The notes below the pieces were generated by a model that saw nothing but the letters and a program-made list of their open reading frames with translations, was not told the origin of the DNA and did not search any database. Shown here piece by piece: positions 1-31,786 of a stretch of DNA of 35,198 bases; the stretch's first letter is position 1; each line of letters starts with the position of its first letter. Position numbers and translations under genes: made by a program. This DNA is from a virus (Duplodnaviria > Caudoviricetes), in IMG/VR virus record IMGVR_UViG_3300030372_002033, positions 1-35,198 of that record. The stretch is one strand, 5' to 3'.

Positions 1-391
1 CTTTGTTGATTTGAACACGCTCATAGTTTAAGATATTGTTTAATTCTGTGTAAAACTTTCTAGCTGTAGGATCTTGCTTAGATATTCCTTCAGGCACAAT
101 CCAGGCTAAGTTACTAAAATTGCCACCTAAAGCATTATCAAAGGCATCTATCTCAACCTTAGCTCTTCTAAAGTCTGCATCAGTTAAAGGAGAATCAGCG
201 TTCCAGGGCTTTTCTAGTCTCTGTTCTATTAACCATTTTATATTATCAACAGAAGCTTGATTGTTAAAGCCAGTATCTTTGTATGAAAATCTATCTTTTA
301 TATTCTTTTTAGACTTCCAATACTCATACATCTCACTCATCATGTCCATTCTTTTCTGCTTATCTACATATATAGGATTACATAAGCCCAT
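1..391 (-). CDS. Putative virion cargo/ejection protein, N-terminal part (runs off the window edge)
   Basis: Not in the ORF track. The ATG at 391-389 overlaps the TAA of the 2979-aa gene (TAATG). The frame is open to position 1: MGLCNPIYVDKQKRMDMMSEMYEYWKSKKNIKDRFSY...LNNILNYERVQINK. Function is inferred from position only. Confidence 0.8.
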   Translation of the reverse strand, partial: MGLCNPIYVDKQKRMDMMSEMYEYWKSKKNIKDRFSYKDTGFNNQASVDNIKWLIEQRLEKPWNADSPLTDADFRRAKVEIDAFDNALGGNFSNLAWIVPEGISKQDPTARKFYTELNNILNYERVQINK

Positions 392-3300
392 TAACAACCC
401 TCCCCTGTTTGATCTTTTGCCCAATCCCAATAATCATTCTTCTTAGCTTCTTGCCTTACAGGAATTAATGAACCGTCATTACCTCTTACAGTCTGTATTG
501 GACTTCTTCTATTATCTATTACACCATTCATTTTATCTATTAATATAGGTGATGAATAAAATACATTTAAATGTTTAGCTATAGTTCTATATGAATTAGC
601 CATATCACCTAGCTCTGTATAATCAAATCTATCCATACTCCCTCTTTCGTAACTGCTAGCATCTATCTCAGTTTCCTTACCAGCAGCATAATGTTCAACA
701 TTTTTTATAAGCTCTCTAACAAAATCTCTAGCATTATTATTTTCTGCCCATTGTAAAACTGTTTTATACAGATGTTCATTAGTTTTATATGCAGGTCTCT
801 CATGCCCCTTAGCATCCCTATAATAATAAGAAGGAGTTACTTGAGGTTGCAATACATATCTAAGTAATAACTTCATTGGATCAGTTCCTTGCACTAAAGG
901 TAGCCATCTATCTACAAACTCAGCCATACTCCTACCCTCTTTAGCACTATTGATAGCGAATAAACCTTCACTCAACACTCTATTAGATAAAGCATTCTCT
1001 ATAGTCTTGCTATAGTCACTACTAATTGAAGCTCTAAGCCTTCTAACATCGTCTCTAAAATCATTTATAACACCTTTATCTTTAATAAATAACTCAGGAC
1101 TTGTATCATTCCCATATGTAGCCTTAAATAAAGCATCTGAGTATCTAGCTTCATTGCTAGATTGTGATTTCATTTGCTTTGGATTTCTATCAATAATGTA
1201 AGAATATCCTCTATGTAAGCGTACTTTAGGACTATTACTATTAAATCTACCTACAAATTCTAACTGACCATAATCTAAAGATTTATTATCTACAGAAAAA
1301 TGAGTTAAATTTGAAGTTCCCTTTGGCTCTATATACTTAACATCTCCTCTAACTCTATAAATATCTAACATCCTTCCTTTTGAAAGGTGCGTATGCTTAT
1401 CAAAGTTCATACCGTCTTTAACATCTATATACTGAACATCACCTTTATCTATAACCATATTCTTAGCTATCTGTTGATCCATTATATCCATAGCTGTTTG
1501 TAAGTTTCTTAATCTTTCCTGAAGTTTGTCAACCTTAGTTGGATTAGCAAAGTTTTCAGCTCTAAAGTATTCCAAACTCCCAAATACATTATCATGCTGA
1601 CGATGAATTAATTCTCTAAGTATTCCATTATTTAAAGCATTACGTATTTCAGAACCAGCTTTCTCTTGACTAAAGGAATCTACATTCATATCTAAGTTTA
1701 GCCTTTTTGCAGACTCTAAAGGATCGTCACCAAAAAGCCTTGCTGTCTCTACAAAATTCTCTATATTCTTAACAAAGAACCCTGCTTTATTATATATATC
1801 AGTACCTGTCTTAGCAAGACCTCCATAGTTTGAGTCCCAGAAACCATTTGTACCAATCAATTCTTTCATCAACTTTCCACCAACAGATAGTTCAAATCCC
1901 TGATCTGGATTGTCTGGAGATACTTGTCTAGGATCAAGGCTAAAAATATTATCCATAATAGAGCCTTGTCTACCTTTGACTATATCCCAATATAAATCAT
2001 CTCTGTCTTTCCTTCTCTTAAAGTCTGTTGTCTTTCCATAAAACATTTCTGCATACTCTGATACAAGAGCGTCTTTCTCAGCACCTTGCATTCTTCCTAT
2101 TTTTCTAGCTAATTTCTGAGCTAAGTACCCTGTAGGATTTGCAAATAAATTTCTCATATCATAATAAGCTGACTTTATTTCAAAAGGCTCAGGAGATCTA
2201 CTACCTCTTTCATCCCAAGTATCATTCTGAATCATATTAGATTTCTTTAATGTTCTAAGTAGCTCATAAAAGACTTCTCTCTCTATTCTCTTATTTCCAA
2301 ATGTTCTATGATTATCTCCAAAGAAAGTTAAATCAGGATCACTATGCTTGTCAAAATTAGCATCCCCTGTTTCACCTGTATGAATATCTTTTTTACCAAA
2401 ATATAAAAAGTCTCTTAATTTATCCTGTGTAGATATAGCATCATGGATCCCACCATGTATATCTAAGCCATTCTGAACAGTATCATAAAACTTATCAAGA
2501 ACTTTCCAATTATCTGCTGTCATACCTTCATCTCTTATAAAGTCTTTTAATAGGTCATTACCTTTAAGCTTAAAGCCTAGCCTATTAAGCCAAGATATAG
2601 CATTTCTAGCTCCTATTATCTGACCAGTCATCATCTTAGCGCCATGAAGTTTAGCTGCATAATTTTGGAATCCAACTTGAGTAGCTTTCTCTCCAGCCTT
2701 ACCATTTATACCTATTCCAAATATATTTATATAATCACTGTTTAATACTTGACTTCTTTCCCACATTCTAAAGTCATCTTTACGACCATTCTCTTTAGCA
2801 AAAGATTTAAATATACTCCAAGGCATACTTGTATGTGTGAACAAGTGATCACCGTCATTATCTCTCTGCATAACTGTACGAAGATCGTGAACATTAACCT
2901 CTGTTAATCCATCCATACCTTCCATAATTTTCTCTACTCTAAATATAACTTTATCATGTCCTATCACTGGTATAGCATGAGACATAGAGCCAAAGTTCAT
3001 CTTTAATGCTTTATCTACCTTTAAATCAAATGTGCTAGTTATTCCATTAGAACCAACTTTAGTAATTATTTCACCATTCAATAATCTAAAAGCATCATGA
3101 TAGGTTAGATTATGAGCTTTAACCATTTTATCTAATCTTTTTAACTGAGCCTCTACTTTAGCCCTAGAAGATTTATCTTCCTTAATACCACCTGCATCTC
3201 TAAGTATATCATTACCTGTACGATCTGTACCTTTATATCTATAATTATTAGAACCAGGATGCTTTAAAGGATTTGTAGACTTGTCATAGAAAGTGCTATA

Positions 3301-6300
3301 ATATTCAAATTTATCCCCTTCTACACTAACAACAACATCTACACCATTAGCATCTCTATATATAAATCTTTCACCTTGTAGATTTGAAGTTACTCCTGTT
3401 ATAGAGTTTCCTAATTGCCTTCTCGCAGTATGTGAATTTAATCCAATACCTCCATAGTTAACAGTAGCCCTGTCATGTATTTCATTTCCTGCAGCTTTAT
3501 AAATCTCTGCATACAAAGGAACTGAAAGCTTTCCATCTATATTAGGTACAATAAAATTATCTTCTCCACCTCTCTGATTAGGAGCTTTAGACAAGTGTTT
3601 ATAGTTTGAGCTTCTTAGCAATCTCCTTAAAGCCTTTTGAGTTAAAGGATTGTTAGGCATGGCTCCATATGAGAATAGTAATTTAGTAAGACCAGTATCT
3701 CCTTTATCCATAGGATTACCTTCAGCTTTATTTATCTCATATAGCCATTCAGCTAACTTAGCACCATCTCTATGTACAGAGTCCCATTGTACAGCTACTT
3801 CTCTTAACTTGTTTTCAAATCCCATCCATACTGTTGCAGCTTTTATATTTGAAGCTGATTGAAAGTCAAATATAGAAGGAGATATAGCTACTCCACTTTC
3901 ATTTTTAGATGTAAAAGAAACTCCTATACTCTCAACAGGCAGCAACATCTTGTTAGAATTATCCATATTCTTAATAGTATTTTGCCACTTACCACTTGCC
4001 TGTGAAAGATCGAAAGGTTTGATTGGATTACCATCTATTGATGTTCCGTGTAATGTTTTAGCAGATGTTTCTCCTAGTGCTATATCTACATCTTTAGGCA
4101 TTTGTTTAGCTATATCGGGATGATATATAAGATATCCTTTACCAAGCAATTGGTTGTCTCCAGTAGAGAATATTATAGTCTTAGCTCCATTCGGGCTATT
4201 AGTAAAGTCTGTATCAAGCATTCCTTTCTGAGCCATAATCAATTTCATTGTTCTTTCAGATGCAAACTTAGCACCATCTAATAAGGAGCTTAATAAGCTT
4301 GGCTGGTCAGCAGCAGCTTTTTGCTGGGCTAAAGAAAGTTCTTTTAATAACCCTCCAGCTTGACCTATAATCTGAAGCTGTCCCATCTCTATGTTCTCTA
4401 TATTTAATGGATGCTTTTTACCACTAGATCCCTCTGATGCACCATCTCCTATAACGCCTACTGTAAATCCGCCATTATCAAGAATACGTTTAGCTTCTTG
4501 CTTAACAGCTTTATTAGGATGCCAGCTTTTAGCCCATCTAAGCACATTTTCATTCATTGGCTGGGTAGTACCACCATCTGATAAGAATCCACGCTTATAC
4601 ATATTTGCCTGTATCTTAGCTAGCTTTTCAGGATTTGCATTCCCTGCATATTCTTTAATTAATTTTTCAATTTCACTTCTTTTACCTGTATTATCAAGAT
4701 AAGGTAATAACATCTTCAGCTCTACATTTGCTCGTGAAGCATTAGACGCATCAAGAAGGCCTCCAAACATAGCTTTAAAGACATCTTTATCTTTACCACT
4801 AAGCCTAGATTCAATAGAGTCATATGTAGCTTTAAACTCAGAATTTAAAAGCTTTAAGTTACTTTCTGTAGCTACAAACATAGCCTTGTCCATGGGAGAT
4901 AATCTTAAATAAAATACATACTCTGTAGGATTCTTTAATATCTTCTTAATATCTGCTTCACTAATACCTGGATCTATAGATTTAAAGCTATCTATTATTT
5001 CTAATCTAGATCTATCTACATGTAAAGCATTATTTAAGAACGACTGTATCATGTCAGGACTTCCTATGGTATCTAGACTTGTATTTCTAAGCGTGCCATC
5101 CACATCTACACTAATAGTATCGTCAATAAAATGAATATTATATCCTTTTTTAGAGTAATATTCACTATTAGGATGACTTATAGCAGGAGCATTGTTATTA
5201 AATTCAATTATACCTCTCTTCTTTCCATCCTTAGTCATGCCTACAATCTTGAGTCTATTTACAGGCTTAGAATTATATATATTAGTCAATAGCTCTAGCG
5301 CATCTTTCTCTCTAAAGGTACTCCATTCTTTTTGCTTTTGAGATATGCTTACATCTTTTTGATCAAATATTTGTTTACGTATATTCTCATTAAGAGCTTT
5401 ATATGGATTGTTAATAAGAGCATCTCTAAATGTAGGATCAATATCTCCATCTTTATTAACAAGATTGTATTCTTTAAGTATTTCTTTTACAGATCTATGA
5501 TGCTCATGAGTTTTATGTCCAGCTTCCAAGGCTTCTGACATCTTAACTGCATCTGCATTTAATATATGGTGTTCATTATTTAATATTACAGCTCTATTAA
5601 CTCTTGTATCAACTTGTTCTAATAGATTTATAGCATCGCCAAAGAATCCATTCTGATTAACTTTATTTATAAGCTCAGATAATACCTCTACAGAGTCACC
5701 TTCTTTATCTCTATATAGTTTATGCCACTCTCTCGACATATTTTCTACAATTCTCATTGTTTCTGACTTATCTAGCCCTAAACCACTCTTGCCTAGCGCA
5801 GTTAAGTTTTCTATTTTAACAACTAATTCTCTTAACTTATTAACGCTTTCAGTTTCTTTTGAATAGATCTTCTCTAATGATGCTTGTAAAGGTCTAGTTA
5901 AAGCTTCATGTACACCAAATTCATCACCACTAATTTGTTCATTTTCACTAAGGCTCTTTTTAGGTGTTATGTTAAACTTCCCTGTCTCCCTGTCTATAGC
6001 ATCTATAAGCCTATCTATATCTATTATAGCTTGACTTATATCTTGCTTAGTATCTTCAGCCCTTGCTGTATTCTCTAATGCTTTTAATTCATTCTTTAAA
6101 TCATTAATAGTTTTAATAGGATCTTCTATAGGCTTCTTGTTTGTAGAAGGATCTAAAGTATCAATAAGGTCTGTTGTTTTATCATATATATCTTTTATTA
6201 ACTTCCTAGTTCCTGTCTTAGAAGCAGATGCAAGCTCTCCAAGAACTGCTTGAGTATTTACTATTAGGTCTGTAAAAGTTTCATTTCCCAGCATCTTAGC

Positions 6301-9300
6301 AGCTTTAATATAATCTTTAATATCGACAACATTCATTTGACGCTTACCATTTTCAACAAATGCAAAGTCAGTCCTTATAATAGCATCTTCTCCAAGGACT
6401 TTTTCAATAGTATCTACAGCCTTTTCGTATGCCTCAATATCTTTTTCAGACATATTTCTTGATTTTAACTCATTCATTACAGCATCTCTAGAAGGCATTG
6501 TCAGCTTACCCTCTCCATTAGGTATAGCTATATTAGCGTCTGCAAGCATAGAAACTAAATTTATAGCCCTTCTATCAAAACCCTTTGCTTTAAATATTCT
6601 ATTAATATAAAGCTCTCTTGTATGTGTAGCCCAATCTTGCTTCCATTCTCTAGGCAACTGTGTATTTAAATTCTTCCATTGATTTTGAGCTATAGATATT
6701 CCTTCACCAGTTAAAACTTTACCACTAGGATCCTTAGAGGAAACACCTACTACCTTCTTCCTTAATTCAAATAGATCTCTTAAGTCATTTAAATGCTCTA
6801 TCACTTGCTCATTAGCCTGAGCTTCTTTTTCATTCTTAGGGTCTTTAACAAAATCCTTAATAATATTCTTATAAGCATCTATAGACGATGCATACTTACC
6901 ATCAATCATAAATAATTTATCTAAACTCTCAGTTAAAGTCTTATCTCCCAACTTATCTCCTGATGGGAACTTTCCTGTAACTACATTATAAACTCTTTCA
7001 GAAGCTTCTATAACTTTAGCTTGCTTAAAGAACTCCATCATAGGATTTAACTTCCCGCCTTCTCCGACAGGGTCAAATTTTATATTCTTTAATCCACCAT
7101 ATTCTCCTGCAAGCATATCCATATGCCTATCAACAATCTCACGAGTCCTTTGATTAAATTCTATCTCTGTAAGTCCTGATTTCTTAACTAAAGCTTCATA
7201 ACTAATTGTTGATGCTTCAGCGCTTTCTCCAGTCCTTACAGTAGCTTCAGCAATATCTGCCAATGCACTTAAGGTTCTATTATAAGTATTAGCATCATCA
7301 ATATCTTTACCTTCTTTATTAGAAATAACATGGCTACCTATAACAACACCTTCTTTAGATACATCTACATTATATCCTAACTCAGACTTCAGCTCTGCAA
7401 GCATTCTCTTATATATATTTAAACCACGCTTTGCAGGTTCAAGAGTTAACTTAACTAAAGCTCCTTCAAATCCAATATCCTTAACAGTAGTACCATCTTC
7501 AAACTTAACATTTGATAGTTTTTCAGCTAATGTATTTAAAGTAGAGCGATCTAAGTTTTGAGCCCTAATAGGACTAAAGTCAGGATCTCCTGTCTTTTTA
7601 ATAATATTATATAAGCTAGACATTTCTAGTACTAATGCGTGATCAGGATTACTATAATCCCTACTATTAGCTGTAAACTCTGCACCTTGCACAGCACTAT
7701 CAAATATCTCAACAATTGAATTTCCAGCCTCATGTGTAGACATAGCAGCACCTAAGCCTTCATGTATATTCTTACCATCATGAAACCTTAATACATCTTG
7801 TACATTCTTAGTATCAACACCAAGTACATTTAAAGCTTCATGGTATGGTGTAAAATCAGCGAAATGTGCCCTTTGCTGGTCATATCCCCACTCACCCCTA
7901 CCTCTAGTCATAACAGCTGCCATAAACAAATGTGAGGCTATTTCTGGGCTTTCCATTGAACCCCAAGCATCTTTACTAACAACCCAAGGATTCATAGCTA
8001 GAACACCAACTCCCATTCTAGGAACAGAGCCTATAGTATCTTCTAACCATTTAGGCCCCCATGACTTCATAATATTCTGATTAACAGCTTTATTCATTTT
8101 ATTTAAAATAGTAATAGTATCATCTATTTTCATATCTGGTAAAGCCTTTAGTATCTCATCACCATTTTTATAAGTCTTATTTCCAGCTTTCCATGATGCA
8201 TCTGCTAATTTACTTCTACTTAATAGATCTTTCTTAGATCCTCTAACCATAACCTTTAATATATTCTTTACAACCTCATCTCCATGAGCTTCTTGTATAG
8301 CTTTATAGTTAGTGCTTTTAAATTGATTCATATATGCTTTAACACCTTGTGATGCAGTTGACATTCCACCAGCACCCATTCCTGCAATATTAGGTATCTT
8401 TCTAATAAGAGGGAATGCTAAAGCCATCTTTACCTCATGTCCTAAGGCACCTGTTAAATCAAAATCTTCATTATTAGCTAAAGATCTTATCTTTCCTGAT
8501 CCAAGTCCATGTAGTGATAATAACATCATATCTTGAGCCATCATGCCTAAGTACTTAGCTACAAAGTTATTTGCTGTATCTGGAATACGTCCTGTTAATC
8601 CACGAGTAGCCCATTCAGCTATATCATTAACATATCTTCCACCCTTAAGGCTTTCAACAAATTCACTAGATATTTTAGCAGCATCATTAATATCTATATC
8701 TGGCATACCTGCATCTTTAAATGCTTTTTGTACAGCTCTAGCTCCAGAAAGAGTTAGATTCTCACTAGCATCTAATGCAGCCTTACCTGTAGCATTTAAA
8801 TCTTTTATCCAAGTAATACCTAGATCATCCTGTGCAGCTTTATTTAAAGCATTAGCTACATCATCTTCAAACTTAACACCTTTCTTAGAAGCTTCTAATA
8901 TAGCTTTACTTTGTGCTTTGTTTAATGCCATTCCCTTAGTAGCTTCTTTTGCTGATTTCTGTATAAATTTATTACCACCAGCTTTTGCAATAGCTCTAGA
9001 TGTCTTTCCTAATAACCCAATTGGCCCCCAAGGAGCAAATAATGATGCACCTTCACCTAATATCCAACCAGCCTTTTCTCCACCAGTCATCTCTTCCCAA
9101 GGCTCTTCTCCAGTAGCTCCTGCTAGATCAGTAAGTCCTAAAGTCATACCAGATGTAAACCCTTCTCCAGCACTCCATAGAAAGTCCCCAACAGATCCCC
9201 AAGCAGTACCTTCATCTTCTACAGGTTCAGCTGGACTAAATCCAAAGTTAGGAGTTTGTGTAGTAGGTTGATTCCTTAAAGGTCTATCCCCACTCTTTAA

Positions 9301-9330
9301 TATATCATAGTATTCTTTAGGTAATGGCAT
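391..9330 (-). CDS. Giant virion protein; putative virion-associated single-chain double-psi-beta-barrel (DPBB) RNA polymerase
   Basis: 2979 aa. Motifs in order: YKRG (K1579-R1580), LLDGAKFAS (D1685), LGKGYL (K1731), ETSAK (K1758), HAIP...MQRDNDGDHLF (D2157-D2161), GAKMMTGQII, QNGLD (D2290). Gly/Ala-rich hydrophobic N-terminal segments. Lies after the tail and ejection genes. Confidence 0.72.
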   Translation of the reverse strand: MPLPKEYYDILKSGDRPLRNQPTTQTPNFGFSPAEPVEDEGTAWGSVGDFLWSAGEGFTSGMTLGLTDLAGATGEEPWEEMTGGEKAGWILGEGASLFAPWGPIGLLGKTSRAIAKAGGNKFIQKSAKEATKGMALNKAQSKAILEASKKGVKFEDDVANALNKAAQDDLGITWIKDLNATGKAALDASENLTLSGARAVQKAFKDAGMPDIDINDAAKISSEFVESLKGGRYVNDIAEWATRGLTGRIPDTANNFVAKYLGMMAQDMMLLSLHGLGSGKIRSLANNEDFDLTGALGHEVKMALAFPLIRKIPNIAGMGAGGMSTASQGVKAYMNQFKSTNYKAIQEAHGDEVVKNILKVMVRGSKKDLLSRSKLADASWKAGNKTYKNGDEILKALPDMKIDDTITILNKMNKAVNQNIMKSWGPKWLEDTIGSVPRMGVGVLAMNPWVVSKDAWGSMESPEIASHLFMAAVMTRGRGEWGYDQQRAHFADFTPYHEALNVLGVDTKNVQDVLRFHDGKNIHEGLGAAMSTHEAGNSIVEIFDSAVQGAEFTANSRDYSNPDHALVLEMSSLYNIIKKTGDPDFSPIRAQNLDRSTLNTLAEKLSNVKFEDGTTVKDIGFEGALVKLTLEPAKRGLNIYKRMLAELKSELGYNVDVSKEGVVIGSHVISNKEGKDIDDANTYNRTLSALADIAEATVRTGESAEASTISYEALVKKSGLTEIEFNQRTREIVDRHMDMLAGEYGGLKNIKFDPVGEGGKLNPMMEFFKQAKVIEASERVYNVVTGKFPSGDKLGDKTLTESLDKLFMIDGKYASSIDAYKNIIKDFVKDPKNEKEAQANEQVIEHLNDLRDLFELRKKVVGVSSKDPSGKVLTGEGISIAQNQWKNLNTQLPREWKQDWATHTRELYINRIFKAKGFDRRAINLVSMLADANIAIPNGEGKLTMPSRDAVMNELKSRNMSEKDIEAYEKAVDTIEKVLGEDAIIRTDFAFVENGKRQMNVVDIKDYIKAAKMLGNETFTDLIVNTQAVLGELASASKTGTRKLIKDIYDKTTDLIDTLDPSTNKKPIEDPIKTINDLKNELKALENTARAEDTKQDISQAIIDIDRLIDAIDRETGKFNITPKKSLSENEQISGDEFGVHEALTRPLQASLEKIYSKETESVNKLRELVVKIENLTALGKSGLGLDKSETMRIVENMSREWHKLYRDKEGDSVEVLSELINKVNQNGFFGDAINLLEQVDTRVNRAVILNNEHHILNADAVKMSEALEAGHKTHEHHRSVKEILKEYNLVNKDGDIDPTFRDALINNPYKALNENIRKQIFDQKDVSISQKQKEWSTFREKDALELLTNIYNSKPVNRLKIVGMTKDGKKRGIIEFNNNAPAISHPNSEYYSKKGYNIHFIDDTISVDVDGTLRNTSLDTIGSPDMIQSFLNNALHVDRSRLEIIDSFKSIDPGISEADIKKILKNPTEYVFYLRLSPMDKAMFVATESNLKLLNSEFKATYDSIESRLSGKDKDVFKAMFGGLLDASNASRANVELKMLLPYLDNTGKRSEIEKLIKEYAGNANPEKLAKIQANMYKRGFLSDGGTTQPMNENVLRWAKSWHPNKAVKQEAKRILDNGGFTVGVIGDGASEGSSGKKHPLNIENIEMGQLQIIGQAGGLLKELSLAQQKAAADQPSLLSSLLDGAKFASERTMKLIMAQKGMLDTDFTNSPNGAKTIIFSTGDNQLLGKGYLIYHPDIAKQMPKDVDIALGETSAKTLHGTSIDGNPIKPFDLSQASGKWQNTIKNMDNSNKMLLPVESIGVSFTSKNESGVAISPSIFDFQSASNIKAATVWMGFENKLREVAVQWDSVHRDGAKLAEWLYEINKAEGNPMDKGDTGLTKLLFSYGAMPNNPLTQKALRRLLRSSNYKHLSKAPNQRGGEDNFIVPNIDGKLSVPLYAEIYKAAGNEIHDRATVNYGGIGLNSHTARRQLGNSITGVTSNLQGERFIYRDANGVDVVVSVEGDKFEYYSTFYDKSTNPLKHPGSNNYRYKGTDRTGNDILRDAGGIKEDKSSRAKVEAQLKRLDKMVKAHNLTYHDAFRLLNGEIITKVGSNGITSTFDLKVDKALKMNFGSMSHAIPVIGHDKVIFRVEKIMEGMDGLTEVNVHDLRTVMQRDNDGDHLFTHTSMPWSIFKSFAKENGRKDDFRMWERSQVLNSDYINIFGIGINGKAGEKATQVGFQNYAAKLHGAKMMTGQIIGARNAISWLNRLGFKLKGNDLLKDFIRDEGMTADNWKVLDKFYDTVQNGLDIHGGIHDAISTQDKLRDFLYFGKKDIHTGETGDANFDKHSDPDLTFFGDNHRTFGNKRIEREVFYELLRTLKKSNMIQNDTWDERGSRSPEPFEIKSAYYDMRNLFANPTGYLAQKLARKIGRMQGAEKDALVSEYAEMFYGKTTDFKRRKDRDDLYWDIVKGRQGSIMDNIFSLDPRQVSPDNPDQGFELSVGGKLMKELIGTNGFWDSNYGGLAKTGTDIYNKAGFFVKNIENFVETARLFGDDPLESAKRLNLDMNVDSFSQEKAGSEIRNALNNGILRELIHRQHDNVFGSLEYFRAENFANPTKVDKLQERLRNLQTAMDIMDQQIAKNMVIDKGDVQYIDVKDGMNFDKHTHLSKGRMLDIYRVRGDVKYIEPKGTSNLTHFSVDNKSLDYGQLEFVGRFNSNSPKVRLHRGYSYIIDRNPKQMKSQSSNEARYSDALFKATYGNDTSPELFIKDKGVINDFRDDVRRLRASISSDYSKTIENALSNRVLSEGLFAINSAKEGRSMAEFVDRWLPLVQGTDPMKLLLRYVLQPQVTPSYYYRDAKGHERPAYKTNEHLYKTVLQWAENNNARDFVRELIKNVEHYAAGKETEIDASSYERGSMDRFDYTELGDMANSYRTIAKHLNVFYSSPILIDKMNGVIDNRRSPIQTVRGNDGSLIPVRQEAKKNDYWDWAKDQTGEGC

Positions 9331-10701
9331 TTATTCTATTTCCTCTAAAAATTTTTCAAAATCATCTTCTATGTATTCATCACGATCCGTAGAGATAAAA
9401 CCTCCAGGAGCATATGATTCAATACTATTTAATGAATCAACAACCTCTCCGCTATCTCCATAGGTTCTTAGTTTTTGTAAAGATTCATCAATATTAAAAT
9501 CAGTTGTAGTTATATTGCTATCATATGTAGGAATCTCTGGCTCTACAATTCCTACTCCAGATGAAGAAAGGCCTTTAAACTGCAGATAATCATCATAAAG
9601 ATCAGACCCTCCCATAGCAGCTTCCATAGCGTTAAAGTAAGGCCCATGCTCTTCTCTAGGCATTCCAGCAACAGCTTGATCATACATAGCAAATAAAGCG
9701 TTTTTATTATCAACCCCTGATATAGCTTCAACAAAGCTATTAAAGTCAGATTCTTCATTTGTTTCATTTATACCTGCTAGTTCTGAATCTAAAGCATTAA
9801 TAGCATCGTAGTTCCGTGATAAGTTTAAAAAGAATGCTGAAGTATTTTTATTTGTAGACAGTTCAGTTCTAACAGCATCTCCAATAGCTCCAGGTAAACT
9901 GTTTATACCAGACATAAAGTCTCCATATGGTTGCATAGCCATAAGTTGTATAGCTTGAACAAGCTCTTCACTAGGCTCTATCTTCTTTTTAGTTACAGGA
10001 TCTGTATATGTTAACCTTTCTACTAGATCCCCAGAATCCTCACCTTCTCCAAGTGTGTACATTCCTTGAATAATTCCATAATTACTTTCAGCATTAGCTA
10101 CTTGCCCTGCTTTCATGTGGTTAGTAATCTTTACAGCATCCGCAAACCTTTGAGTAGGATCTTTAGAGAAATATGCTTGATCTGCACCAGCTGTAGTTTC
10201 CCAGCCTAATCCACCTTCTTCCAATGCTTTTAAAGCATGCTCTTGAAAGGCTTCATATTCATGAGGATCTAATACTCTATTAGCACCAGCAAATTCACTT
10301 TGCATTTCTTTTAATGTAGAAGCTTGTGATCTTAGTGTAGATAGTCCAGCATCTAGGCTAGATTGATATTCACTTAATGTATTTAAGTTTTGAGTTATAG
10401 CATTCATATTAATACTGTTCTGCTCATCAACTATACTTATAATATCAGCTGCACCTTGAGTCATAAAGGATGGATCTACGTTATCGTATTTATCATACAT
10501 CTTTTCAGTAGCTCTAACTTGATCCTTCATATCATAGTATTCTTTTAATAAAATACTTTGAGTAGCTTGTGCTTTACGTTCTTCTCTATCTAAAGCTCTT
10601 TCTTCTTGAGCCATTTGCATTTGCTTGTATTGCATAATTAAAGATGGCATTTCATCTAAAAACTCTGCTAACGGACTCCTTTCTACTACTATCTCTGCCA
10701 T
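9331..10701 (-). CDS. Acidic alpha-helical protein, putative internal virion/ejection protein
   Basis: 456-aa ORF with an AGGAG RBS, no Cys and coiled-coil-like segments. Lies between the nozzle gene and the giant protein. Confidence 0.6.
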   Translation of the reverse strand: MAEIVVERSPLAEFLDEMPSLIMQYKQMQMAQEERALDREERKAQATQSILLKEYYDMKDQVRATEKMYDKYDNVDPSFMTQGAADIISIVDEQNSINMNAITQNLNTLSEYQSSLDAGLSTLRSQASTLKEMQSEFAGANRVLDPHEYEAFQEHALKALEEGGLGWETTAGADQAYFSKDPTQRFADAVKITNHMKAGQVANAESNYGIIQGMYTLGEGEDSGDLVERLTYTDPVTKKKIEPSEELVQAIQLMAMQPYGDFMSGINSLPGAIGDAVRTELSTNKNTSAFFLNLSRNYDAINALDSELAGINETNEESDFNSFVEAISGVDNKNALFAMYDQAVAGMPREEHGPYFNAMEAAMGGSDLYDDYLQFKGLSSSGVGIVEPEIPTYDSNITTTDFNIDESLQKLRTYGDSGEVVDSLNSIESYAPGGFISTDRDEYIEDDFEKFLEEIE

Positions 10702-10709
10702 AATAACTC

Positions 10710-11795
10710 CTATTTTACACTTTCAAGTTCTGCAATTTCATCATAAAATCTATCTTTTTGCCTTCTACCTTCTCCATACATTCCTTTTTGATATGATAAT
10801 GTATCTCTATATTTACCTAAACTTACTCCAGCATAATCAGTGCCTAAAGTACGAGTATCTAAATCTAATCCTTTAATTCCAAAGTCATATGCAGATTGCG
10901 CTCTTTCCGTTCCAAAATCATATGTAGATTGAGCCTGCCTTTGTCCAAAAGCAAAATTTCTACGTGCTGTATCCATTCCTTCAGATTGCCCTTTTGCCAA
11001 TTCTTTTAATTGAGTTTGCATTCCGTATTGAGCCCCTCCAGAGCTAGCAAGTCCAGATCTTGCCTGCATTGCTTGAGATTGTCCTAAAGCACCTTTTGCT
11101 CCAGCCCTATACTGTCTTCCTAAAGCTTGACTTGTATCTGAAAATTGATTTTGCATTCCTTCCATAGCAAAGTCTTTTGTTGCTCCAAGTTGCCTGTTTG
11201 TAAAGTCTAAATCACTTCCAAGTTGATCTCTTTGAACGTCTAAAGCATCCTTTCTTACATCAAGCTTATCATAATCTATTTGGCTTTGTTGTTGGTTTAA
11301 ATCATATTCTTGTTGAATAAAGTCAAAAGGCTTTTGTTCAAAACCTGTAAGATATTTATCCATGTCTGTTGCTGTAACTCCAAATTCTGTAAAAGCTTTC
11401 TCCACTTCACTTTCGCTCATAACATTTGGATTTGACCCAAATCTTTCTCTAGCACTACTCCATTCTACTTGAGCAAATGCATCTTCTACAGCTTTTCTTC
11501 TATCAAATTCTTCTTTGCTTTCACCTCCAATTAAAGACCCTAATGCATCTCCCCAATTCCATTCATCTCCTGCATTATATTCTTTTAGACCAGTATATGG
11601 ATTGATAGTACCAGCACCAACATCTTTAGCAAATTTTTCACCAGACTCTTTATCAATATCTATAAAAACAGATTCTAAAGCAGTTACATGGCTAGGCTGT
11701 CCATCAATTTCACGTATTTTTGTATCTCCAAATCTACCTAGCCTAGCTCTCTTGTCTTTATTTAATTTACGTGTATCTACAATTTTATTACTCAT
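10710..11795 (-). CDS. Putative ejection (DNA pilot-like) protein
   Basis: 361 aa with an AGGAG RBS and no Cys. N-terminal GRFGDT...GAGTINPYTGLKEY motif, then a Q/G/A-rich helical region with 7- and 11-residue periodicity. Confidence 0.6.
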   Translation of the reverse strand: MSNKIVDTRKLNKDKRARLGRFGDTKIREIDGQPSHVTALESVFIDIDKESGEKFAKDVGAGTINPYTGLKEYNAGDEWNWGDALGSLIGGESKEEFDRRKAVEDAFAQVEWSSARERFGSNPNVMSESEVEKAFTEFGVTATDMDKYLTGFEQKPFDFIQQEYDLNQQQSQIDYDKLDVRKDALDVQRDQLGSDLDFTNRQLGATKDFAMEGMQNQFSDTSQALGRQYRAGAKGALGQSQAMQARSGLASSGGAQYGMQTQLKELAKGQSEGMDTARRNFAFGQRQAQSTYDFGTERAQSAYDFGIKGLDLDTRTLGTDYAGVSLGKYRDTLSYQKGMYGEGRRQKDRFYDEIAELESVK

Positions 11796-11804
11796 CAGTT
11801 TCTC

Positions 11805-12947
11805 CTATCTATAAGAAGTTTTTGTGGACATATTTTTAAAGTCATCCACTCCCAAAGATTCAAATAGTCTTTTTTGCCATGAAGGTTGTTCATACTCTAA
11901 TGCGTTAATCATGCTAAAATCTTCAGGAGACTCAGAACCCCAGCCAGCATCTCCTCTATAATTAACAAGATTTTTATTCCTATTAATTGTATCTTTAATG
12001 TTAAAATTATCTAAAGGGCCTGCTGCATTAGTTCCTCTCCCTCTCAGATTAACATCTCTTGTTGGGGCAAACAACGCATTGCCAGCATTACTATTCCTAT
12101 ATTCTCTAGCCCTTTGATCTCCTTCCATAAATAATTCTTGAGATGTATTTCTCATTAATTCAGGAGTTTCTCCTGTAGCAAACAGTTCCCTAGTTCCACC
12201 TGTCTCAGGCCTATAAAAAGCTGCTTTTTGAGCTTCTCCATATACGTCTTGAGGTACAATAGAACTTCTAGAACCATATTGACCTATAGCCTTCCCTGTA
12301 TTAGGGTTTGTAATAGCTTCACTAAATCCAAGGCCACGTCTTGCGTCTCCAACTCCTAATGTTTGTCTTCCAGTTCCAACACCAACATTTTCAGTAAATA
12401 AATTTCTTTTTTGAGTGTCTAAGTTGTGAAGCATTGTTTCATCTCCATAAGGCATTTTTGCTCCAAAACCTATCCTAGAATCCGCAAAGTCTCTGGCTGC
12501 CTTAGCTTCCTTCATTCCAGCTACTTTCTTGCCTATAAAGCTATCTCCAAAGTCTAGTCCTTTAGCAGAATCTATCCCTGCTTTTTTTAACTTAGCTGCT
12601 TGTCCCATCCCAGCCGTTACTCCAGATTTTAATGATGATAATAAATTTTTAGATCCTAAAGCTCCTAATTCAGATTGAAGCTGTTCTCTATCTTCGCTAA
12701 AGAATTTACCTCCTTTTAAACTTCCTCCTGCAGCCCTAGAACCAATAGCTCCGCCTAAGGCAGAAGCACCACCTGTTAATAGTCCTAATGTAAGAGGGTT
12801 TACAGCTCCTCCAGTTAAAAGACCGACACCCAAGGTTCCAGCTGTACGGCCTATAGATCCCCATAAATCCTTTTTCCTAGCTTTTCTTTTTAAAGCCTTT
12901 TCTTCATCTCTTACATCTTTTCTTAATAAAGCCTGTGCATATCCCAT
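11805..12947 (-). CDS. Putative ejection protein with Gly/Ala/Leu-rich membrane-interacting N-terminus
   Basis: 380 aa, no Cys. The segment WGSIGRTAGTLGVGLLTGGAVNPLTLGLLTGGASALGGAIG resembles podovirus ejection/pilot proteins. Confidence 0.6.
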   Translation of the reverse strand: MGYAQALLRKDVRDEEKALKRKARKKDLWGSIGRTAGTLGVGLLTGGAVNPLTLGLLTGGASALGGAIGSRAAGGSLKGGKFFSEDREQLQSELGALGSKNLLSSLKSGVTAGMGQAAKLKKAGIDSAKGLDFGDSFIGKKVAGMKEAKAARDFADSRIGFGAKMPYGDETMLHNLDTQKRNLFTENVGVGTGRQTLGVGDARRGLGFSEAITNPNTGKAIGQYGSRSSIVPQDVYGEAQKAAFYRPETGGTRELFATGETPELMRNTSQELFMEGDQRAREYRNSNAGNALFAPTRDVNLRGRGTNAAGPLDNFNIKDTINRNKNLVNYRGDAGWGSESPEDFSMINALEYEQPSWQKRLFESLGVDDFKNMSTKTSYR

Positions 12948-12950: not shown

Positions 12951-13142
12951 TTACCCCTTATCTAATACTTTTTTATATAATACATCATTATGTTTTACAT
13001 ACATAACTAATCCTTCATTGGTAGCTCTAAGCACCATTACACCATTTTTTAGATCTGACTTTTCTGGAGCACCTTCTAGTATTTGAGCTACTTCTTGCTT
13101 TTTATGTATAGAATTTCTTTCATGTCTAGTCATTCCCATCAC
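12951..13142 (-). CDS. Small hypothetical protein
   Basis: 63-aa ORF overlapping the stop of the nozzle gene. The true start may be one of the following Met codons. Confidence 0.65.
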   Translation of the reverse strand: MMGMTRHERNSIHKKQEVAQILEGAPEKSDLKNGVMVLRATNEGLVMYVKHNDVLYKKVLDKG

Positions 13143-15523
13143 TTAATCCCCTTTGTTCTATAGACTATAGAAATTGAATCAATCTCAAAATCAGCTGCTA
13201 TAGCATTTAATCCATCACCATGTAACTTTAATTGAAAGCTAGATACGTTATTTATAGATACAGATGGTTTTAATTCAGCTTTTAGCCAATCATCAGTACC
13301 TGCGTTTACTAAACATTTATGTGCAGCGCTACCCCCCGTTGTAGAACCATCTGAATTAATAGTAAAAAAATTTCCTGATAAAGCTCCTCCGTCTGATCCA
13401 TAGTTAACTTGCACATTGCTTGCATCACCTCTATAAGTTATATAGACTTTGTATATTTTCTTTCTAACTCCAGGCTGTCCAAAATCCAAATCTTTTGTTT
13501 GTATGTGCAATCCTGTACTTGATCCTGAGGCATCAGACCATTTTTTAGGCGTTCCAGTATCATCAGTTTCTATATAGATTAAATCACCATTCCAATCTGT
13601 TACAAAATTTGTAAACCTTATACTATCTGAACACTTACTATTTCCGTAAACCCAGCTTTGAGTGACTATATCATAAAGAAAGACATCTCCAGCGCTTGAA
13701 TGTGTGCAATCTTTCACAACTAGTATCTGCCTTTTGCTTGGAATGTATCCAATCATTGAATTTGCTGTAGCAAAAGTAGCCCAGTCACTTTCTTTTATTA
13801 TTTGTCTACCACCTTTTTCAAGTAAATTATTAACTCTTTGCCCATCATATAGATAGCAACCTTGCTCATTAACCCAAGCTATACCAAAATCAGTTTTGCA
13901 AGTTGCTGCAGGATGAGAAACCCCCTTATGGACAAATGTATCTTCTATAAATTCTAACTCCTGAGAAATATTTAAAAGTTCTAACTTTTTTTTCTTAAAA
14001 ATCAAAAGTCTGTCTGCATAGGCTTCAAGCTTAACTATACTATCTCCGTCATTTATACTTGCTTCAAGCTTTCTAACATCTGAAAATGTATCAAACTTAT
14101 TGATAGGGCTTTTAAATACAGCATCTCCATAAGTAGTTCCACCATATTGTACATTGCCTATGTAAGCCCTTCTATTTGATACTATTGCAGTTTTATATTT
14201 AGCTGTAGTAGAAGGCGCATCTTGAGGCATTGCATTAAGATCTTCCCATGTAAGTGAAGAAACAGAGTTTATTTCACCGACGCTTGCAGATACACATTGG
14301 CTATATTTTACAACCCATGGCACATAAGATCCAACAATTCCTTCCCTTACTCCATCTTTTAAACTAACGTCTAATAAATGATACCATTGTCCTGAGCCAG
14401 AAGATGTTTGCTTCCTCCAATAAACTCTACCTCCAGTTAACCTTGGATCGTATGGAGATGTTGCGTAAATATCTATGCCAGGAATAACTTCAGTACCGCT
14501 TATTGCAAATTCTGCAGAATCAAAACCCCCTCCATGAAATTCTCTAGGCAAAGATTCTTGAGAGCCAATAGCTCCAGGTTCTGCATCGTATACATAACTC
14601 ATAGCAAAATCATAATTTCCTGCAGGTATTGAGCCTCCACTACCTTCAGGGCCATCTGCTGTAAAATTTAAATGAAACCCATCTCCTGCTTTTGGAAAAA
14701 GAGCCCAGGTCTTACCATCCCATTCAGTTCCATCACTTGGAGAAACATCTGGAGTATCAATAACAGTGTCTCCTTGTCGTGCACTAGATCCTAAAGTTAA
14801 TGTTACTGCTGTTAAATCAGTTATTATTTTATCAGTTAATACAGTGTTGTCTACCCCGCCAGTAAATGCATGGGTTGTACCTGTAAATAGTCTAGTTTCA
14901 GTACTACTCCCTTGAGCTGATCCAGTAAGAGCTCCTTGAATTAAAACATTGTTTGGCATTTTTATTTCAGCATCTTTACAATACCATGCATTATAGGAAT
15001 CAGCAGTAGCAGTACCATCAAAATGAGATCTTTCTATATAACCATACCATTTATTTGTATTGGTGTTTCCAAACTCAGAATCACATACTCTTAAATTTCC
15101 ATCAACAAAATAAAAAACATCTTTTCTTTGTCCACCAGTATTATTAGTCATTCCAGTTATTGGATCACCCCAAGTAGTATCTTCTGCACTATATATAGAA
15201 ACATTTCCAGTTCCAGACCCATCTGGATCAGAAAAAGCTAAATAATCTGCTCCAGTTTCTTCATCACTAGAACCTGCAGAGCTTGTATGTCCATCAACTC
15301 TATCATGGCTAAATTGAAATAATCCATATCCTGGTTCAATAGAATTTGTCCTAGCAGCTGGAGGGCTCATAGTAGAAGCTGCCCCCATCATCCTTGTTTG
15401 ACCTATTTTATCAACCATTATATCTATAGCTTCATGTAATTCATTTTCAGCTATATCTCTAGCATCAGAGTTACTATTTATTCCACCATGAAAGGCTCTT
15501 ATATTATATATCTGTTTAGGCAC
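13139..15523 (-). CDS. Tail nozzle / tail tubular protein B-like (beta-propeller)
   Basis: 794 aa with a GTG start and AGAGG RBS. N-terminal FHGGIN motif and C-terminal TKDLDFG...KKIYKVY, as in podovirus nozzle proteins (T7 gp12/P22 gp10 type). Beta-rich and immediately upstream of the ejection genes. Confidence 0.75.
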   Translation of the reverse strand: MPKQIYNIRAFHGGINSNSDARDIAENELHEAIDIMVDKIGQTRMMGAASTMSPPAARTNSIEPGYGLFQFSHDRVDGHTSSAGSSDEETGADYLAFSDPDGSGTGNVSIYSAEDTTWGDPITGMTNNTGGQRKDVFYFVDGNLRVCDSEFGNTNTNKWYGYIERSHFDGTATADSYNAWYCKDAEIKMPNNVLIQGALTGSAQGSSTETRLFTGTTHAFTGGVDNTVLTDKIITDLTAVTLTLGSSARQGDTVIDTPDVSPSDGTEWDGKTWALFPKAGDGFHLNFTADGPEGSGGSIPAGNYDFAMSYVYDAEPGAIGSQESLPREFHGGGFDSAEFAISGTEVIPGIDIYATSPYDPRLTGGRVYWRKQTSSGSGQWYHLLDVSLKDGVREGIVGSYVPWVVKYSQCVSASVGEINSVSSLTWEDLNAMPQDAPSTTAKYKTAIVSNRRAYIGNVQYGGTTYGDAVFKSPINKFDTFSDVRKLEASINDGDSIVKLEAYADRLLIFKKKKLELLNISQELEFIEDTFVHKGVSHPAATCKTDFGIAWVNEQGCYLYDGQRVNNLLEKGGRQIIKESDWATFATANSMIGYIPSKRQILVVKDCTHSSAGDVFLYDIVTQSWVYGNSKCSDSIRFTNFVTDWNGDLIYIETDDTGTPKKWSDASGSSTGLHIQTKDLDFGQPGVRKKIYKVYITYRGDASNVQVNYGSDGGALSGNFFTINSDGSTTGGSAAHKCLVNAGTDDWLKAELKPSVSINNVSSFQLKLHGDGLNAIAADFEIDSISIVYRTKGIK

Positions 15524-22469: not shown

Positions 22470-22477
22470 TATCTCTC

Positions 22478-24122: not shown

Positions 24123-25868
24123 TTATGATGTTCTAACTTCTCTTAATTGTACTGTATAACCACAAGTATGGCTAGCAACAGGACTTGTCATTGTTAATAT
24201 TATACTACCTCCATTATCTGAAAGTACAGGATCAGCTATGTCAGTTGTTCCTTGTTCCCATAACGTAGCTACATCAAGTGTCCCTCCATGGGTAAAAGAA
24301 CCTCTTACACTCCAAGAATACCCAGAATTATTAGCTGAATTTCTTAAAACTACCAATAACTCCATTGCAACAACATGATAATCTTGAGCATCATCACAAA
24401 GAGTTAACTCATGAGTTGTTGAAGATGCAGCGTTCCATTCTCCTACATAAGAAACTATTCTTGAATATTCAGTAGTTGCTCCCCAGAAAATAGATTCATT
24501 GGTTGCAATATGTAAACTGTGTTGTGGATTAGATACACCTATACCAACATTTCCACCTGCCTTAATACGCATAACTTCTTCAGATGTCGTTACAGAACCA
24601 GCATCGGCAGAACCATCAGTTAGAAATATAAAATCTGACCTTCCATATGTTGCACTTCGTACTGCTCCAAACCAACATTTTACTCTTTCTGTAGCAGCAG
24701 TTCCACCACCAGAAGTTCTGAATCCTATTCCAGTATAACGTGCAGTAGCATTGCCATCAGTTGTATCACCTAAATTTTCTATCAAAAGGTCTTCAAAGGG
24801 ACTAAAAGTAGCACTATTTACCGTTTTACTTATATGAAGTTTAGAATTTGGAATAGTAACTCCAATACCAATTTTACCATCGTGCCTAATAACCATTCTT
24901 TGCGCAATTGTATTAGAAGCATTATCATCGCAGGTAAAAAACTTTAAATTAGTAGGAGCATCATTTGCACTACTGTCATCCCATGTTCCAGCACCTTCAG
25001 CAAGTATTTTAGCTCCAACTGTTGGAGGACTCGATATACTTGAATCAGAACCAAGAAAATAAATTGTTCCCAAATCTGTATCAGCACCTACAGTAGTATC
25101 TGACCCTTGTAAAGCTAGAGTTCCACCTCCAGTAGTTTGATCATCTGTACTATGGCCACTTTTTATATGTAAAGCATAGGTTGGTTCAATAGTGCCTATA
25201 CCAACATTTCCATTTTGTAAAATACTAAAAGCACCTGATGTATCCTCCATATTTATTACAAAATCTTCAGTCGTACCATCTAGTTTTAGCACAGCATAAT
25301 GTGAACCCCCAGAATCAGTTTTAGCTTGAAGCTTAATTTCTGAATCTGCACCATTATAATCATTTACTATACGAAGAGTACAATTAGCATTTGTAGTATT
25401 ATTATTCCAAATATCTAAGTTTTCCTGAGGACTAACTGTACCAATACCAACATTTCCGCCAGAAAAAGAAAACAGACTATCAGTACTAAAAGTCATAAGG
25501 TTTGAGCTATGGTTGTAATTAATTGAGCCAGGAGTTCCAGCTACATCTGAAAAATAAATACCAGCTGTTTCACCATTTGGGACTCCAAGTTCTAAGTAAT
25601 TATTAGCACTATCTTCAATAAATAAATTTGTATTTGCATGTGGAGTTACTCCAGAGTTAGCTGCATATAAATGTAAAAGCTTATCTGGAGCAGCAGTATT
25701 AATACCAATTCTATCTGTATTTAAATATAATGGAGTTGCATCATTGTCTCCAGTTTTTACTTGTACAGCATTTCCATCTGCTCCAGCTACTGTACTTCCA
25801 CTATTACCTTCAAGTTTTAATAAGCTTGTATATGTTGATGCTATTGTCTTTCCTGTTAAAGTTGCCAT
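24123..25868 (-). CDS. Tail fibre protein
   Basis: 581 aa with five (G/R)-[NKI]-[VI]-GIG-type repeats (RIGINTAAP, GNVGIGTVSP, GNVGIGTIEP, GKIGIGVTIP, GNVGIGVSNP), each followed by an L[HD][IL] motif. Confidence 0.85.
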   Translation of the reverse strand: MATLTGKTIASTYTSLLKLEGNSGSTVAGADGNAVQVKTGDNDATPLYLNTDRIGINTAAPDKLLHLYAANSGVTPHANTNLFIEDSANNYLELGVPNGETAGIYFSDVAGTPGSINYNHSSNLMTFSTDSLFSFSGGNVGIGTVSPQENLDIWNNNTTNANCTLRIVNDYNGADSEIKLQAKTDSGGSHYAVLKLDGTTEDFVINMEDTSGAFSILQNGNVGIGTIEPTYALHIKSGHSTDDQTTGGGTLALQGSDTTVGADTDLGTIYFLGSDSSISSPPTVGAKILAEGAGTWDDSSANDAPTNLKFFTCDDNASNTIAQRMVIRHDGKIGIGVTIPNSKLHISKTVNSATFSPFEDLLIENLGDTTDGNATARYTGIGFRTSGGGTAATERVKCWFGAVRSATYGRSDFIFLTDGSADAGSVTTSEEVMRIKAGGNVGIGVSNPQHSLHIATNESIFWGATTEYSRIVSYVGEWNAASSTTHELTLCDDAQDYHVVAMELLVVLRNSANNSGYSWSVRGSFTHGGTLDVATLWEQGTTDIADPVLSDNGGSIILTMTSPVASHTCGYTVQLREVRTS

Positions 25869-25890
25869 TTCAGATATCCTTACTAATGCG

Positions 25891-26436
25891 TTATCCTTTT
25901 GCTATTAAATATTCTATTTCTGTAGTTTCACTTGCACTACACTTTACATAAATATCATTACAATCAATAGGGGCAGATATACCCGATCTCTCGTCTCCAG
26001 CAGCACCTCTAATATTTATACTTCCCTCAGGAGGAATAATAATCAAATACTTACTGTTGTCATTGCCTTGTAATGATAATAATACTTCGTTTGTTAACCC
26101 TAAATTCTTTATATATAAAAATGCACAATCATTACTATCAGTTGATAATTGCGTAGCACTATCAGTTAATGCAACTCTTCCACTTTTAGTTGGATATAAT
26201 AATACATCTTCCCAATTTACATCTGTAAACTCTTCCCATTTATTTATCTCTCCATGAGTAGTTGAAGTCCATTTATCGCCCCATTGAGAAGCATCTATAA
26301 TAGCAGTTCCTTTTCCACCTAATGTTTTTCCCACTTCACTTTGAAATTCTTCATGTGTTACATTTGCTTCTTCCATCTCTTTAATCTGAGTTGGTATTAC
26401 ATAAGTACTAAATATTACTTTTCTTGCGTTTGCCAT
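25891..26436 (-). CDS. Putative tail/collar structural protein (paralog of 26436-26828)
   Basis: 181 aa. FLYIKNLG...YLIII...IYVKCSASETTEIEY is shared with the adjacent gene. Confidence 0.65.
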   Translation of the reverse strand: MANARKVIFSTYVIPTQIKEMEEANVTHEEFQSEVGKTLGGKGTAIIDASQWGDKWTSTTHGEINKWEEFTDVNWEDVLLYPTKSGRVALTDSATQLSTDSNDCAFLYIKNLGLTNEVLLSLQGNDNSKYLIIIPPEGSINIRGAAGDERSGISAPIDCNDIYVKCSASETTEIEYLIAKG

Positions 26437-28261: not shown

Positions 28262-28277
28262 TTATTATTCCTAAGGT

Positions 28278-28325
28278 GTCCACTCCCCCTAGAAGAGACC
28301 CCACATCTCTACAGAGGGAGTGAAC
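28278..28325 (-). promoter_or_regulatory. Long intergenic stem-loop after the capsid genes (processing, stabilising or attenuating element)
   Basis: Minus-strand GUUCACUCCCUCU/AGGGGGAGUGGAC plus AGAGAU/GUCUCU, with G-U wobbles. No U-tract follows it in the sense direction. Confidence 0.55.
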
Positions 28326-28338
28326 GATTTTAGTTTAT

Positions 28339-28785: not shown

Positions 28786-28796
28786 TAGTCACCCCC

Positions 28797-29303: not shown

Positions 29304-29314
29304 AATTTATCTCC

Positions 29315-30781: not shown

Positions 30782-30836
30782 CTGTCTATCTCCTATTTAT
30801 TTATTAAATCGGATAGACTATAAATTTTTTATAAGC

Positions 30837-31748: not shown

Positions 31749-31786
31749 CTTTTCTCCTTATTTAGCTTTACGTCAATGTGGATAGC

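Follow-up and report, generated by a model that had tools for sequence, protein, structure and literature searches.

The DNA analyzed here is a 35-kb phage fragment with a completeness estimate of 65% (IMG/VR virus record IMGVR_UViG_3300030372_002033, positions 1 to 35,198, the whole of which is called the window below), and all of its long genes are on the minus strand. One of its late genes encodes a giant protein of 2979 amino acids (aa), the middle of which is probably a single-chain two-barrel RNA polymerase (RNAP), likely packaged in the virion, tied through a cysteine to the product of the next gene (hereafter the partner), and injected for early transcription.

Conserved motifs in the giant protein

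A sequence-only reading of the window had proposed this polymerase from a set of motifs, all of which were found at their places in the translated open reading frame (ORF): KR (residues 1579-80), LLDGAKFAS (1683-91, with D1685), GKG (1730-32), SAK (1756-58), HAIP (2118-2121, its Pro 36 residues before D2157), MQRDNDGDHLF (2154-2164, with DNDGD at 2157-2161, nt 2848-2862), GAKMMTGQII (2230-39), and QNGLD (2286-90). As the chance expectation of DxDGD in a protein of this composition is 0.105, the motif alone is not beyond chance, and the case rests on the relatives and the fold.

Conservation of the catalytic aspartates, on which the proposal depended, held throughout the homologs. A first search with residues 1500-2400 as the query returned 46 proteins, 45 of 2830-3103 aa and one fragment, and QxDxDGD is present in 46/46. 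With residues 1450-2450 as the query of an exhaustive search, 69 representatives were obtained; DxDxD occupies the catalytic site in 65 of the 67 proteins of at least 1500 aa, the other two (P0048 and P0095) ending before the site. When the long proteins were aligned (68 rows), K1579, K1717, K1731, and K1758 were conserved at 1.00 and G1686 at 0.99, P1738, P2121, D2126, N2146, Q2155, D2157/2159/2161, and D2290 all reached at least 0.97, and D1685 stood at 0.93. Q2286 is likewise conserved, and residues 900-1300 and 2400-2700 contain almost no conserved columns. Another conserved block, in which Gly and Trp are frequent, lies at the N-terminus of the giant protein (residues ~40-530, nt ~7740-9210).

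A predicted two-barrel core

The AlphaFold2 model of residues 1450-2450, built from 64 rows, was confident (pLDDT 86.9, pTM 0.85) and contains two double-psi beta-barrels (DPBBs), as the sequence-only reading had anticipated. Foldseek placed phi14:2 gp66 first (E 8.9e-8, TMq 0.33), then QDE-1 and RDR2, and among the matches listed only these three had E ≤ 0.001. A wide structural search over 48,161 chains returned six at Z ≥ 8, all of them single-chain two-barrel polymerases: QDE-1 (Z 17.3, root-mean-square deviation 4.9, 450 aligned residues, 12% identity over these), RDR2 and P74-26 gp62 (both Z 11.9), gp66 (Z 11.4, root-mean-square deviation 4.8, with the longest span, 565 aligned residues), and P23-45 gp96 (Z 10.6, twice). 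Ranks 7-19 were beta'-type subunits starting at model residue 426-473. Small DPBB proteins matched model ranges 166-357 and 467-738 separately, and the latter range also matched the largest subunits of cellular and viral RNAPs. The best matches in a viral structure library were unnamed proteins (TMq 0.67, 15% identity), followed by crAss-like proteins. A two-barrel polymerase fold for the core appears practically certain, and RNA synthesis as its activity is highly probable; a bridge helix and a trigger-loop helix are predicted to follow the acidic barrel.

The active-site residues of QDE-1 given in the accessible text of PMC9508822 (R671, D709, K743, K767, P964, D1007/09/11, and D1116) could be paired with residues of the core by order, spacing, and secondary structure, not by residue-level superposition. 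K1579/R1580 is likely the equivalent of R671, D1685 of D709, K1731 of K743, and K1758 of K767, while P2121 would stand for P964, D2157/59/61 for D1007/09/11, and D2290 for D1116. The core might use this fold in a non-catalytic way, as a component of the ejection channel that grips DNA or has a structural role, a use that would fit with the two thirds of the giant protein that have no assigned fold and with the lack of an R-x-P arginine (see below). However, the three Asp, the fourth acidic residue, and the four Lys are fixed down to ~20% identity and the flanks drift, making a non-catalytic role scarcely credible.

The giant protein has no Pfam or PHROG family, and seven distant homologs gave only weak, short matches. 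Against the PDB, the single sequence and the core profile gave nothing significant, and the full-length profile matched helical bundles only (profile positions ~1000-1200). Comparison of the core profile with gp66 by hhalign and hmmsearch was not significant. No match was found by tblastn of the core, protein P0046, and the partner against 50,697 phage records, of which 141 were matched by gp66 as a control. In the ESM Atlas the nearest clusters are unnamed, and the nearest named one, an RNA-dependent RNA polymerase at 0.84, is a lead only.

An exchanged arginine at the active site

The accessible text of PMC7862312 describes the R-x-P arginine as universally conserved and as the main determinant against deoxyribonucleoside triphosphates (dNTPs) in cellular RNAPs, and QDE-1 has R962-S-P964 (PMC9508822). 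In the giant protein Ala2119 stands at this position (R425 of beta'), which had been overlooked in the earlier reading. R-x-P is present in 7/7 reference phage enzymes, and the residue before their first Asp is never Arg. The Pro-to-first-Asp spacing is 36 here and in P23-45 gp96 and gp64, and 37 in gp66.

We compared 102 distinct catalytic slices, chosen by the pattern QxDxDxD (127 before duplicates were removed). Ninety of them have Ala/Ser at the R-x-P position and Arg before the first Asp, the other 12 have Arg/Lys at the R-x-P position and Gly/Ala before the first Asp, and no mixed state occurs; protein-search matches alone gave 63/74 in the swapped and 11/74 in the usual state. On a tree of 55 rows (115 before thinning at 60% identity) there is a single change of state, on a branch of support 12 next to a long row, so the 90/12 split is one event and not repeated covariation. 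The fourth motif position is Gly in 97, Val in three, and Ala in two of the 102, the locus-derived rows having been selected on Gly. Three basal members (P0080, P0085, and P0087) have R-I-P, a DFDVD loop much like that of gp66, and Val in the fourth motif position; judged by these motifs, they are the bridge that ties the polymerase family to the crAss type.

In what we consider the likeliest reading, R2156, whose neighbors are Q2155 (the N458 position) and the first Asp, occupies the pocket of Ala2119 and keeps ribonucleotide selection. We lean toward a relocation of the arginine from the Pro-gate loop to the catalytic loop. Alternatively, an injected enzyme that has lost its ribonucleotide-selecting arginine might make DNA or mixed DNA/RNA, in a PolD-like or primase-like manner: Ala2119 is at the equivalent of R425, whose loss relaxes dNTP exclusion in Escherichia coli RNAP (accessible text of PMC7862312), and PolA, PolB, and PolC had no match in 9/9 relatives at least 90% complete (G001-G007, G013, and G014), in searches where the controls were detected. 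However, R2156 appears exactly where R-x-P is lost, the residues at other ribose-contact positions (Q2155, Q2286, and D2290) are kept, and the match to PolD, which is characterized by a histidine steric gate and a DP1 partner, is weak (Z 4.8). The phages also encode a primase-helicase and may use the host polymerase, and sister lineages keep R-x-P at the same site of the giant protein, with L053 in the same gene order. A DNA-making enzyme is very unlikely in our estimation, and just as unlikely is the bolder variant in which selection is relaxed and the enzyme makes DNA in addition to RNA.

Cysteine pattern and probable virion packaging

Exactly one cysteine, within the last three residues, was found in 60/60 homologs of at least 2800 aa, and among the distinct locus proteins that end in a stop codon, 44/44 carry one in their last four residues (the two sets overlap). 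With the 0.83% cysteine of the window's other genes, ~25 would be expected per giant protein. The family of a conserved 794-aa gene further upstream contains 0.63% cysteine, and the early genes of the same loci 1.4%. The gene just upstream of the polymerase gene encodes no cysteine in 37/37 cases, and among the first 12 residues of the partner there is exactly one in 38/40; L017 gains its cysteine with a GTG start (bringing the count to 39) and L041 has none. In gene order, the C-terminal cysteine of the polymerase thus faces the N-terminal cysteine of the partner.

A comparable arrangement exists in phi14:2, where cysteines are found at the C-end of gp67, at both ends of gp66, and at the N-end of gp65, and where g067, g066, and g065 are annotated as virion proteins by mass spectrometry. 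The ends-only pattern recurs in 5/5 further gp66-positive genomes (crAssBcn1, Fpv1, DAC15, C0526BW15, and cr55_1), among them some extra internal cysteines, one corrected start, and one cysteine lying 8 residues before the end. The two-gene form of the window is shared by Fpv1 and cr55_1, and the fused gene of Fpv1 (4401 aa) has its cysteine only at the far end. We found no paper on the terminal cysteines of crAss cargo, and the main texts of the gp66 preprint and the crAss001 atlas do not mention them. Cysteine loss also marks the ejection proteins of N4/DEV (accessible text of PMC11445570), and the pre-ejectosome of cyanopodophage A4 holds a disulfide between Cys1715 of gp27 and Cys5 of gp26 (accessible text of PMC12002296).

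The claim of the sequence-only reading that the polymerase is virion-packaged is supported indirectly by gene position and by this cysteine pattern, from which we infer its presence in the particles themselves; packaging is highly probable. A two-barrel RNAP made in the cell for middle or late genes, like YonO or P23-45 gp64, would be as compatible with the fold, which matches the non-virion P74-26 gp62 as well as gp66 (Z 11.9 vs 11.4), and no second polymerase was recognized among the 31 unassigned ORFs of the complete relative G001. Against such a non-virion enzyme, the gene lies at the end of the structural operon and not among the early genes, the protein is 3000 aa long, and internal cysteines are absent from all 60 homologs, as opposed to the 1.4% of early proteins. 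We regard it as improbable.

A disulfide tether between C2979 of the polymerase and C4 of the partner is fairly probable. If the polymerase is real and injected, the terminal cysteines could still bind metal or serve assembly rather than link it to the partner. A single cysteine per chain could pair between copies or ligate metal, and the infected cytoplasm is reducing. However, the polymerase and partner cysteines face each other in gene order, fusion in Fpv1 leaves only the far one, and the A4 structure shows a bond between neighboring ejection proteins (PMC12002296, in its accessible text), so that a metal or assembly role appears unlikely. A complex prediction with the last 300 residues of the polymerase and residues 1-330 of the partner scored 0.03, which decides neither way.

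The model of the partner itself has a pLDDT of 70, with a best structure match of Z 7.2 and no Foldseek match at E ≤ 0.001. A match to a phiM1 ejectosome entry (Z 5.7) lies within noise. In the ESM Atlas the partner falls near an LPD39 cluster (28% of members), which is a lead only.

Several points weigh against an injected two-barrel RNAP. Sequence similarity to solved or annotated polymerases is not detectable, no cultured member was found by tblastn of the phage records, the structural overlap is partial (the Foldseek TMq is 0.33 at best), and the pairing with QDE-1 residues is not a superposition. The arginine held to be the universal guard against dNTPs is missing, and its exchange for R2156 is a single event on the tree. 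No hydrophobic segment of the giant protein reached threshold, unlike in the N-terminal domain found in the N4 enzyme, and cysteine avoidance as a sign of passage through an oxidizing space is an argument by analogy.

Proposed mechanism

In the mechanism that we propose, D2157/2159/2161 would bind Mg, the four conserved lysines would contact the NTP and the RNA, and R2156 would reach into the pocket left by Ala2119 and take over selection for the 2'-OH. The polymerase would be packaged together with the three small cysteine-free proteins encoded upstream, and the C2979-C4 disulfide with the 869-aa partner would let both be threaded out in order. Once refolded in the cytoplasm, the polymerase would transcribe the first-entering DNA independently of rifampicin, and perhaps also pull DNA in. 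The N-terminal ~1450 residues likely take the role of phi14:2 gp67, here joined to the polymerase in the way seen in Fpv1 and cr55_1. More tentatively, a widespread family of 50-60 kb phages that lies outside Crassvirales may inject a two-barrel RNAP as the head of a disulfide-linked thread, its largest clade having rebuilt the ribonucleotide selector.

Gene layout and relatives

The polymerase gene is on the same strand as the terminase, portal, capsid, and fiber genes and ends the virion operon (Table 1). The head genes match Pfam SU10_MCP (capsid) and P22_portal (portal). From its position, the 794-aa gene could be guessed to encode the tail nozzle, a role for which no confirmation was found, and the 380-, 361-, and 456-aa genes likely encode small ejection proteins. 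The stop of the 456-aa gene abuts the polymerase ATG (9331-9330) and the polymerase stop overlaps the partner ATG (TAATG, 393-389); given these junctions, the cargo genes are tightly translationally coupled.

Table 1 Features of the window.
Feature	Position (nt)	Strand	Basis
Virion module: terminase large subunit (cut), P22-like portal, 303-aa gene, SU10-type major capsid protein, tail fiber	24123..35198	-	Pfam/PHROG searches
Conserved 794-aa gene, upstream of the cargo block	13139..15523	-	no database match
Three cysteine-free genes (380, 361, and 456 aa)	9331..12947	-	cysteine counts
2979-aa giant gene: polymerase core between ~1450 N-terminal and ~570 C-terminal aa, the last residue being the single Cys	391..9330	-	
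Predicted two-barrel polymerase core, residues ~1468-2407, the stretch that aligns with solved single-chain enzymes	2110..4929	-	model, structure search
K1579-R1580, on the helix before the first barrel	4591..4596	-	alignment, model
Basic barrel (beta-type), residues ~1615-1806: D1685-G1686, K1717, K1731, K1758	3913..4488	-	alignment; structure rows 6tg9, 6loe
Acidic barrel (beta'-type) with insertions, residues ~1916-2187	2770..3585	-	structure search
Pro-gate loop A2119-I-P2121, with an invariant Pro and Ala in place of the usual Arg	2968..2976	-	
Catalytic loop Q2155-R2156-D2157-N-D2159-G-D2161, clade-specific Arg before the first Asp	2848..2868	-	
30-residue helix 2222-2251, likely bridge helix	2578..2667	-	model, structure search
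Helix 2273-2290 ending Q2286...D2290, likely trigger-loop base	2461..2514	-	alignment, model
C2979, the only cysteine of the protein	394..396	-	
First part of the partner gene, truncated where the window ends (869 aa in locus L001); sole cysteine C4 (nt 380-382)	2..391	-	

Gene order was compared across 52 viral loci and is fixed: several small genes, the giant gene, and a partner of 750-1050 aa. The partner gene comes next in 47/52, the remaining five being cut by record ends. Where a locus reaches beyond it, convergent genes for a resolvase, DUF1599, DUF932, and a primase-helicase follow.

Directly after the polymerase stop and before the partner gene, 23 of the 52 loci, near-duplicates included, carry a conserved DNA element of ~93 nt (for example L002:4617-4709, L008:14612-14704, and L053:13987-14078) that spans distant lineages; nine of the 23 built the profile. 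The element is absent from the window, G001, and G014. It has no strong fold and no Rfam match, and a ~30-aa ORF is open in only some copies.

The capsid protein is 59-75% identical in 9/9 relatives at least 90% complete. Eight of the nine have genomes of 50-62 kb, G001 being 52,096 bp with terminal repeats. The ninth, G013 (104,488 bp), has two capsid genes 57 kb apart, 60-62% identical to that of the window, and is probably two related genomes joined in assembly. The three near-complete relatives examined encode a primase-DnaB fusion and a resolvase-like gene or an ERF protein. A second polymerase family was not recognized among 13 unassigned proteins of G014 either.

The Tara source holds 4/46 of the first-search homologs, which points to a marine habitat. 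A search of sequencing runs gave no RNA run among the matches listed, 20 rows being labeled marine/viral metagenome or metagenome; only the two possible source runs contained half of the sequence words. Regarding the host, a motif pattern scan of genome contigs returned seven matches, none with a profile match and all attributable to chance. Shine-Dalgarno-like AGGA/GGAG/GGGG sequences precede 17/20 window genes, as judged by eye. Such sites before most genes argue against a Bacteroidota host.

In the early region, adjacent JAB-domain and ThiF/E1-like genes (L070:13172-14790 in G014; 26168-27734 in G005) form a ubiquitin-like conjugation set. They are preceded by a gene of 435-489 aa, with a radical-SAM/SPL-like gene in between in G014, and the set was not seen in G001. 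In the virion module, a metallophosphoesterase gene (window 16312-17091) is 96% identical in G001 and 84% in G014, and its neighbors diverge far more between relatives; the late module of phi14:2 likewise holds a metallophosphoesterase (g075). Two large fiber-like genes (1551 and 581 aa) lie in a block that varies between relatives (window 17264-25868), likely a host-range module.

Significance

Two-barrel polymerases that are injected have been documented in crAss-like phages and P23-45, and the giant-protein family would extend them to small phages with a different head module, in a form invisible to Pfam, PHROGs, and PDB sequence searches. We found no description of this family in the literature, of which our coverage was partial; the RNAP alignments of PMC10770324 may include relatives, although DNDGDH, DFDGDH, DYDGDH, DWDGD, and QRD are absent from its readable supplements. 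If true, the moved arginine would give a second, natural answer to how RNA is selected over DNA in the fold with which all cells transcribe. It makes testable how the two-barrel fold separates ribo- from deoxyribonucleotides and how easily the switch moves, with the sister lineages that have the usual R-x-P as a natural control pair, and it is relevant to the RNAP/PolD split. With the cysteine rule, ejected cargo could be recognized from sequence alone, and ordered ejection becomes a model open to testing.

Comparison with known systems

The closest counterpart is phi14:2 gp66, which like the core is a single chain with two barrels, was the top Foldseek match, and gave the longest aligned span. 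Its gene (in the order g067-g066-g065) also closes the late module and is followed by a convergent early module, and it shares ends-only cysteines with its neighbors gp67 and gp65. However, no sequence similarity is detectable, gp66 has Ile/Val where the fourth motif position is Gly here, and its arginine is in R-x-P, as opposed to Ala/Ser with Arg before the first Asp. The protein described here is also ~3000 aa long with the upstream cargo likely fused, and comes from phages of 50-62 kb whose capsid and portal sequences are unrelated and in which no DNA polymerase was found.

QDE-1 and RDR2, the eukaryotic RNA-interference polymerases, gave the highest Z and have the same order of helix Arg/Lys, Asp-Gly, two Lys, Pro-gate, DxDGD, and trigger-loop Asp. 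They are not virion proteins, and QDE-1 keeps R962 in R-x-P. P23-45 gp96, a virion protein fused to the tape measure, also places a two-barrel core in a giant virion protein, with no cysteine in 5002 aa, and shares with gp64 the 36-residue spacing noted above. It has no clamp, and both it and the non-virion gp64/P74-26 gp62 differ from the present enzyme in keeping R-x-P and in belonging to a siphovirus with two polymerases.

As far as the accessible texts of PMC13434306 and PMC11445570 describe it, the N4/DEV virion RNAP of Schitoviridae is likewise a giant ejected polymerase in three parts, free of cysteine and encoded last in an ejection operon. Its T7-type fold is unrelated, its N-terminal domain has membrane helices, and it has no terminal cysteine. 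Cyanopodophage A4 gp27-gp26 resembles the proposed pair in the disulfide that joins neighboring ejection proteins (Cys1715 of gp27 and Cys5 of gp26); an RNA polymerase is unmentioned in the A4 main text (PMC12002296).

Regarding Crassvirales, tblastn of the capsid (14 records) and portal (16 records) matched no crAss-like phage at E ≤ 1e-3, a result with which remote homology is still compatible. Crassvirales genomes are near 90-100 kb, as opposed to 50-62 kb in eight of the nine near-complete relatives, and the fourth motif position also departs from theirs (Gly in 97/102). A PolA or PolB of their own is typical of Crassvirales and was found in 0/9. We do not place these phages in Crassvirales, and the absent R-x-P arginine lowers the standing of their polymerase as a canonical member of the two-barrel RNAPs, but not the reading that it works like one, namely like the crAss enzyme.

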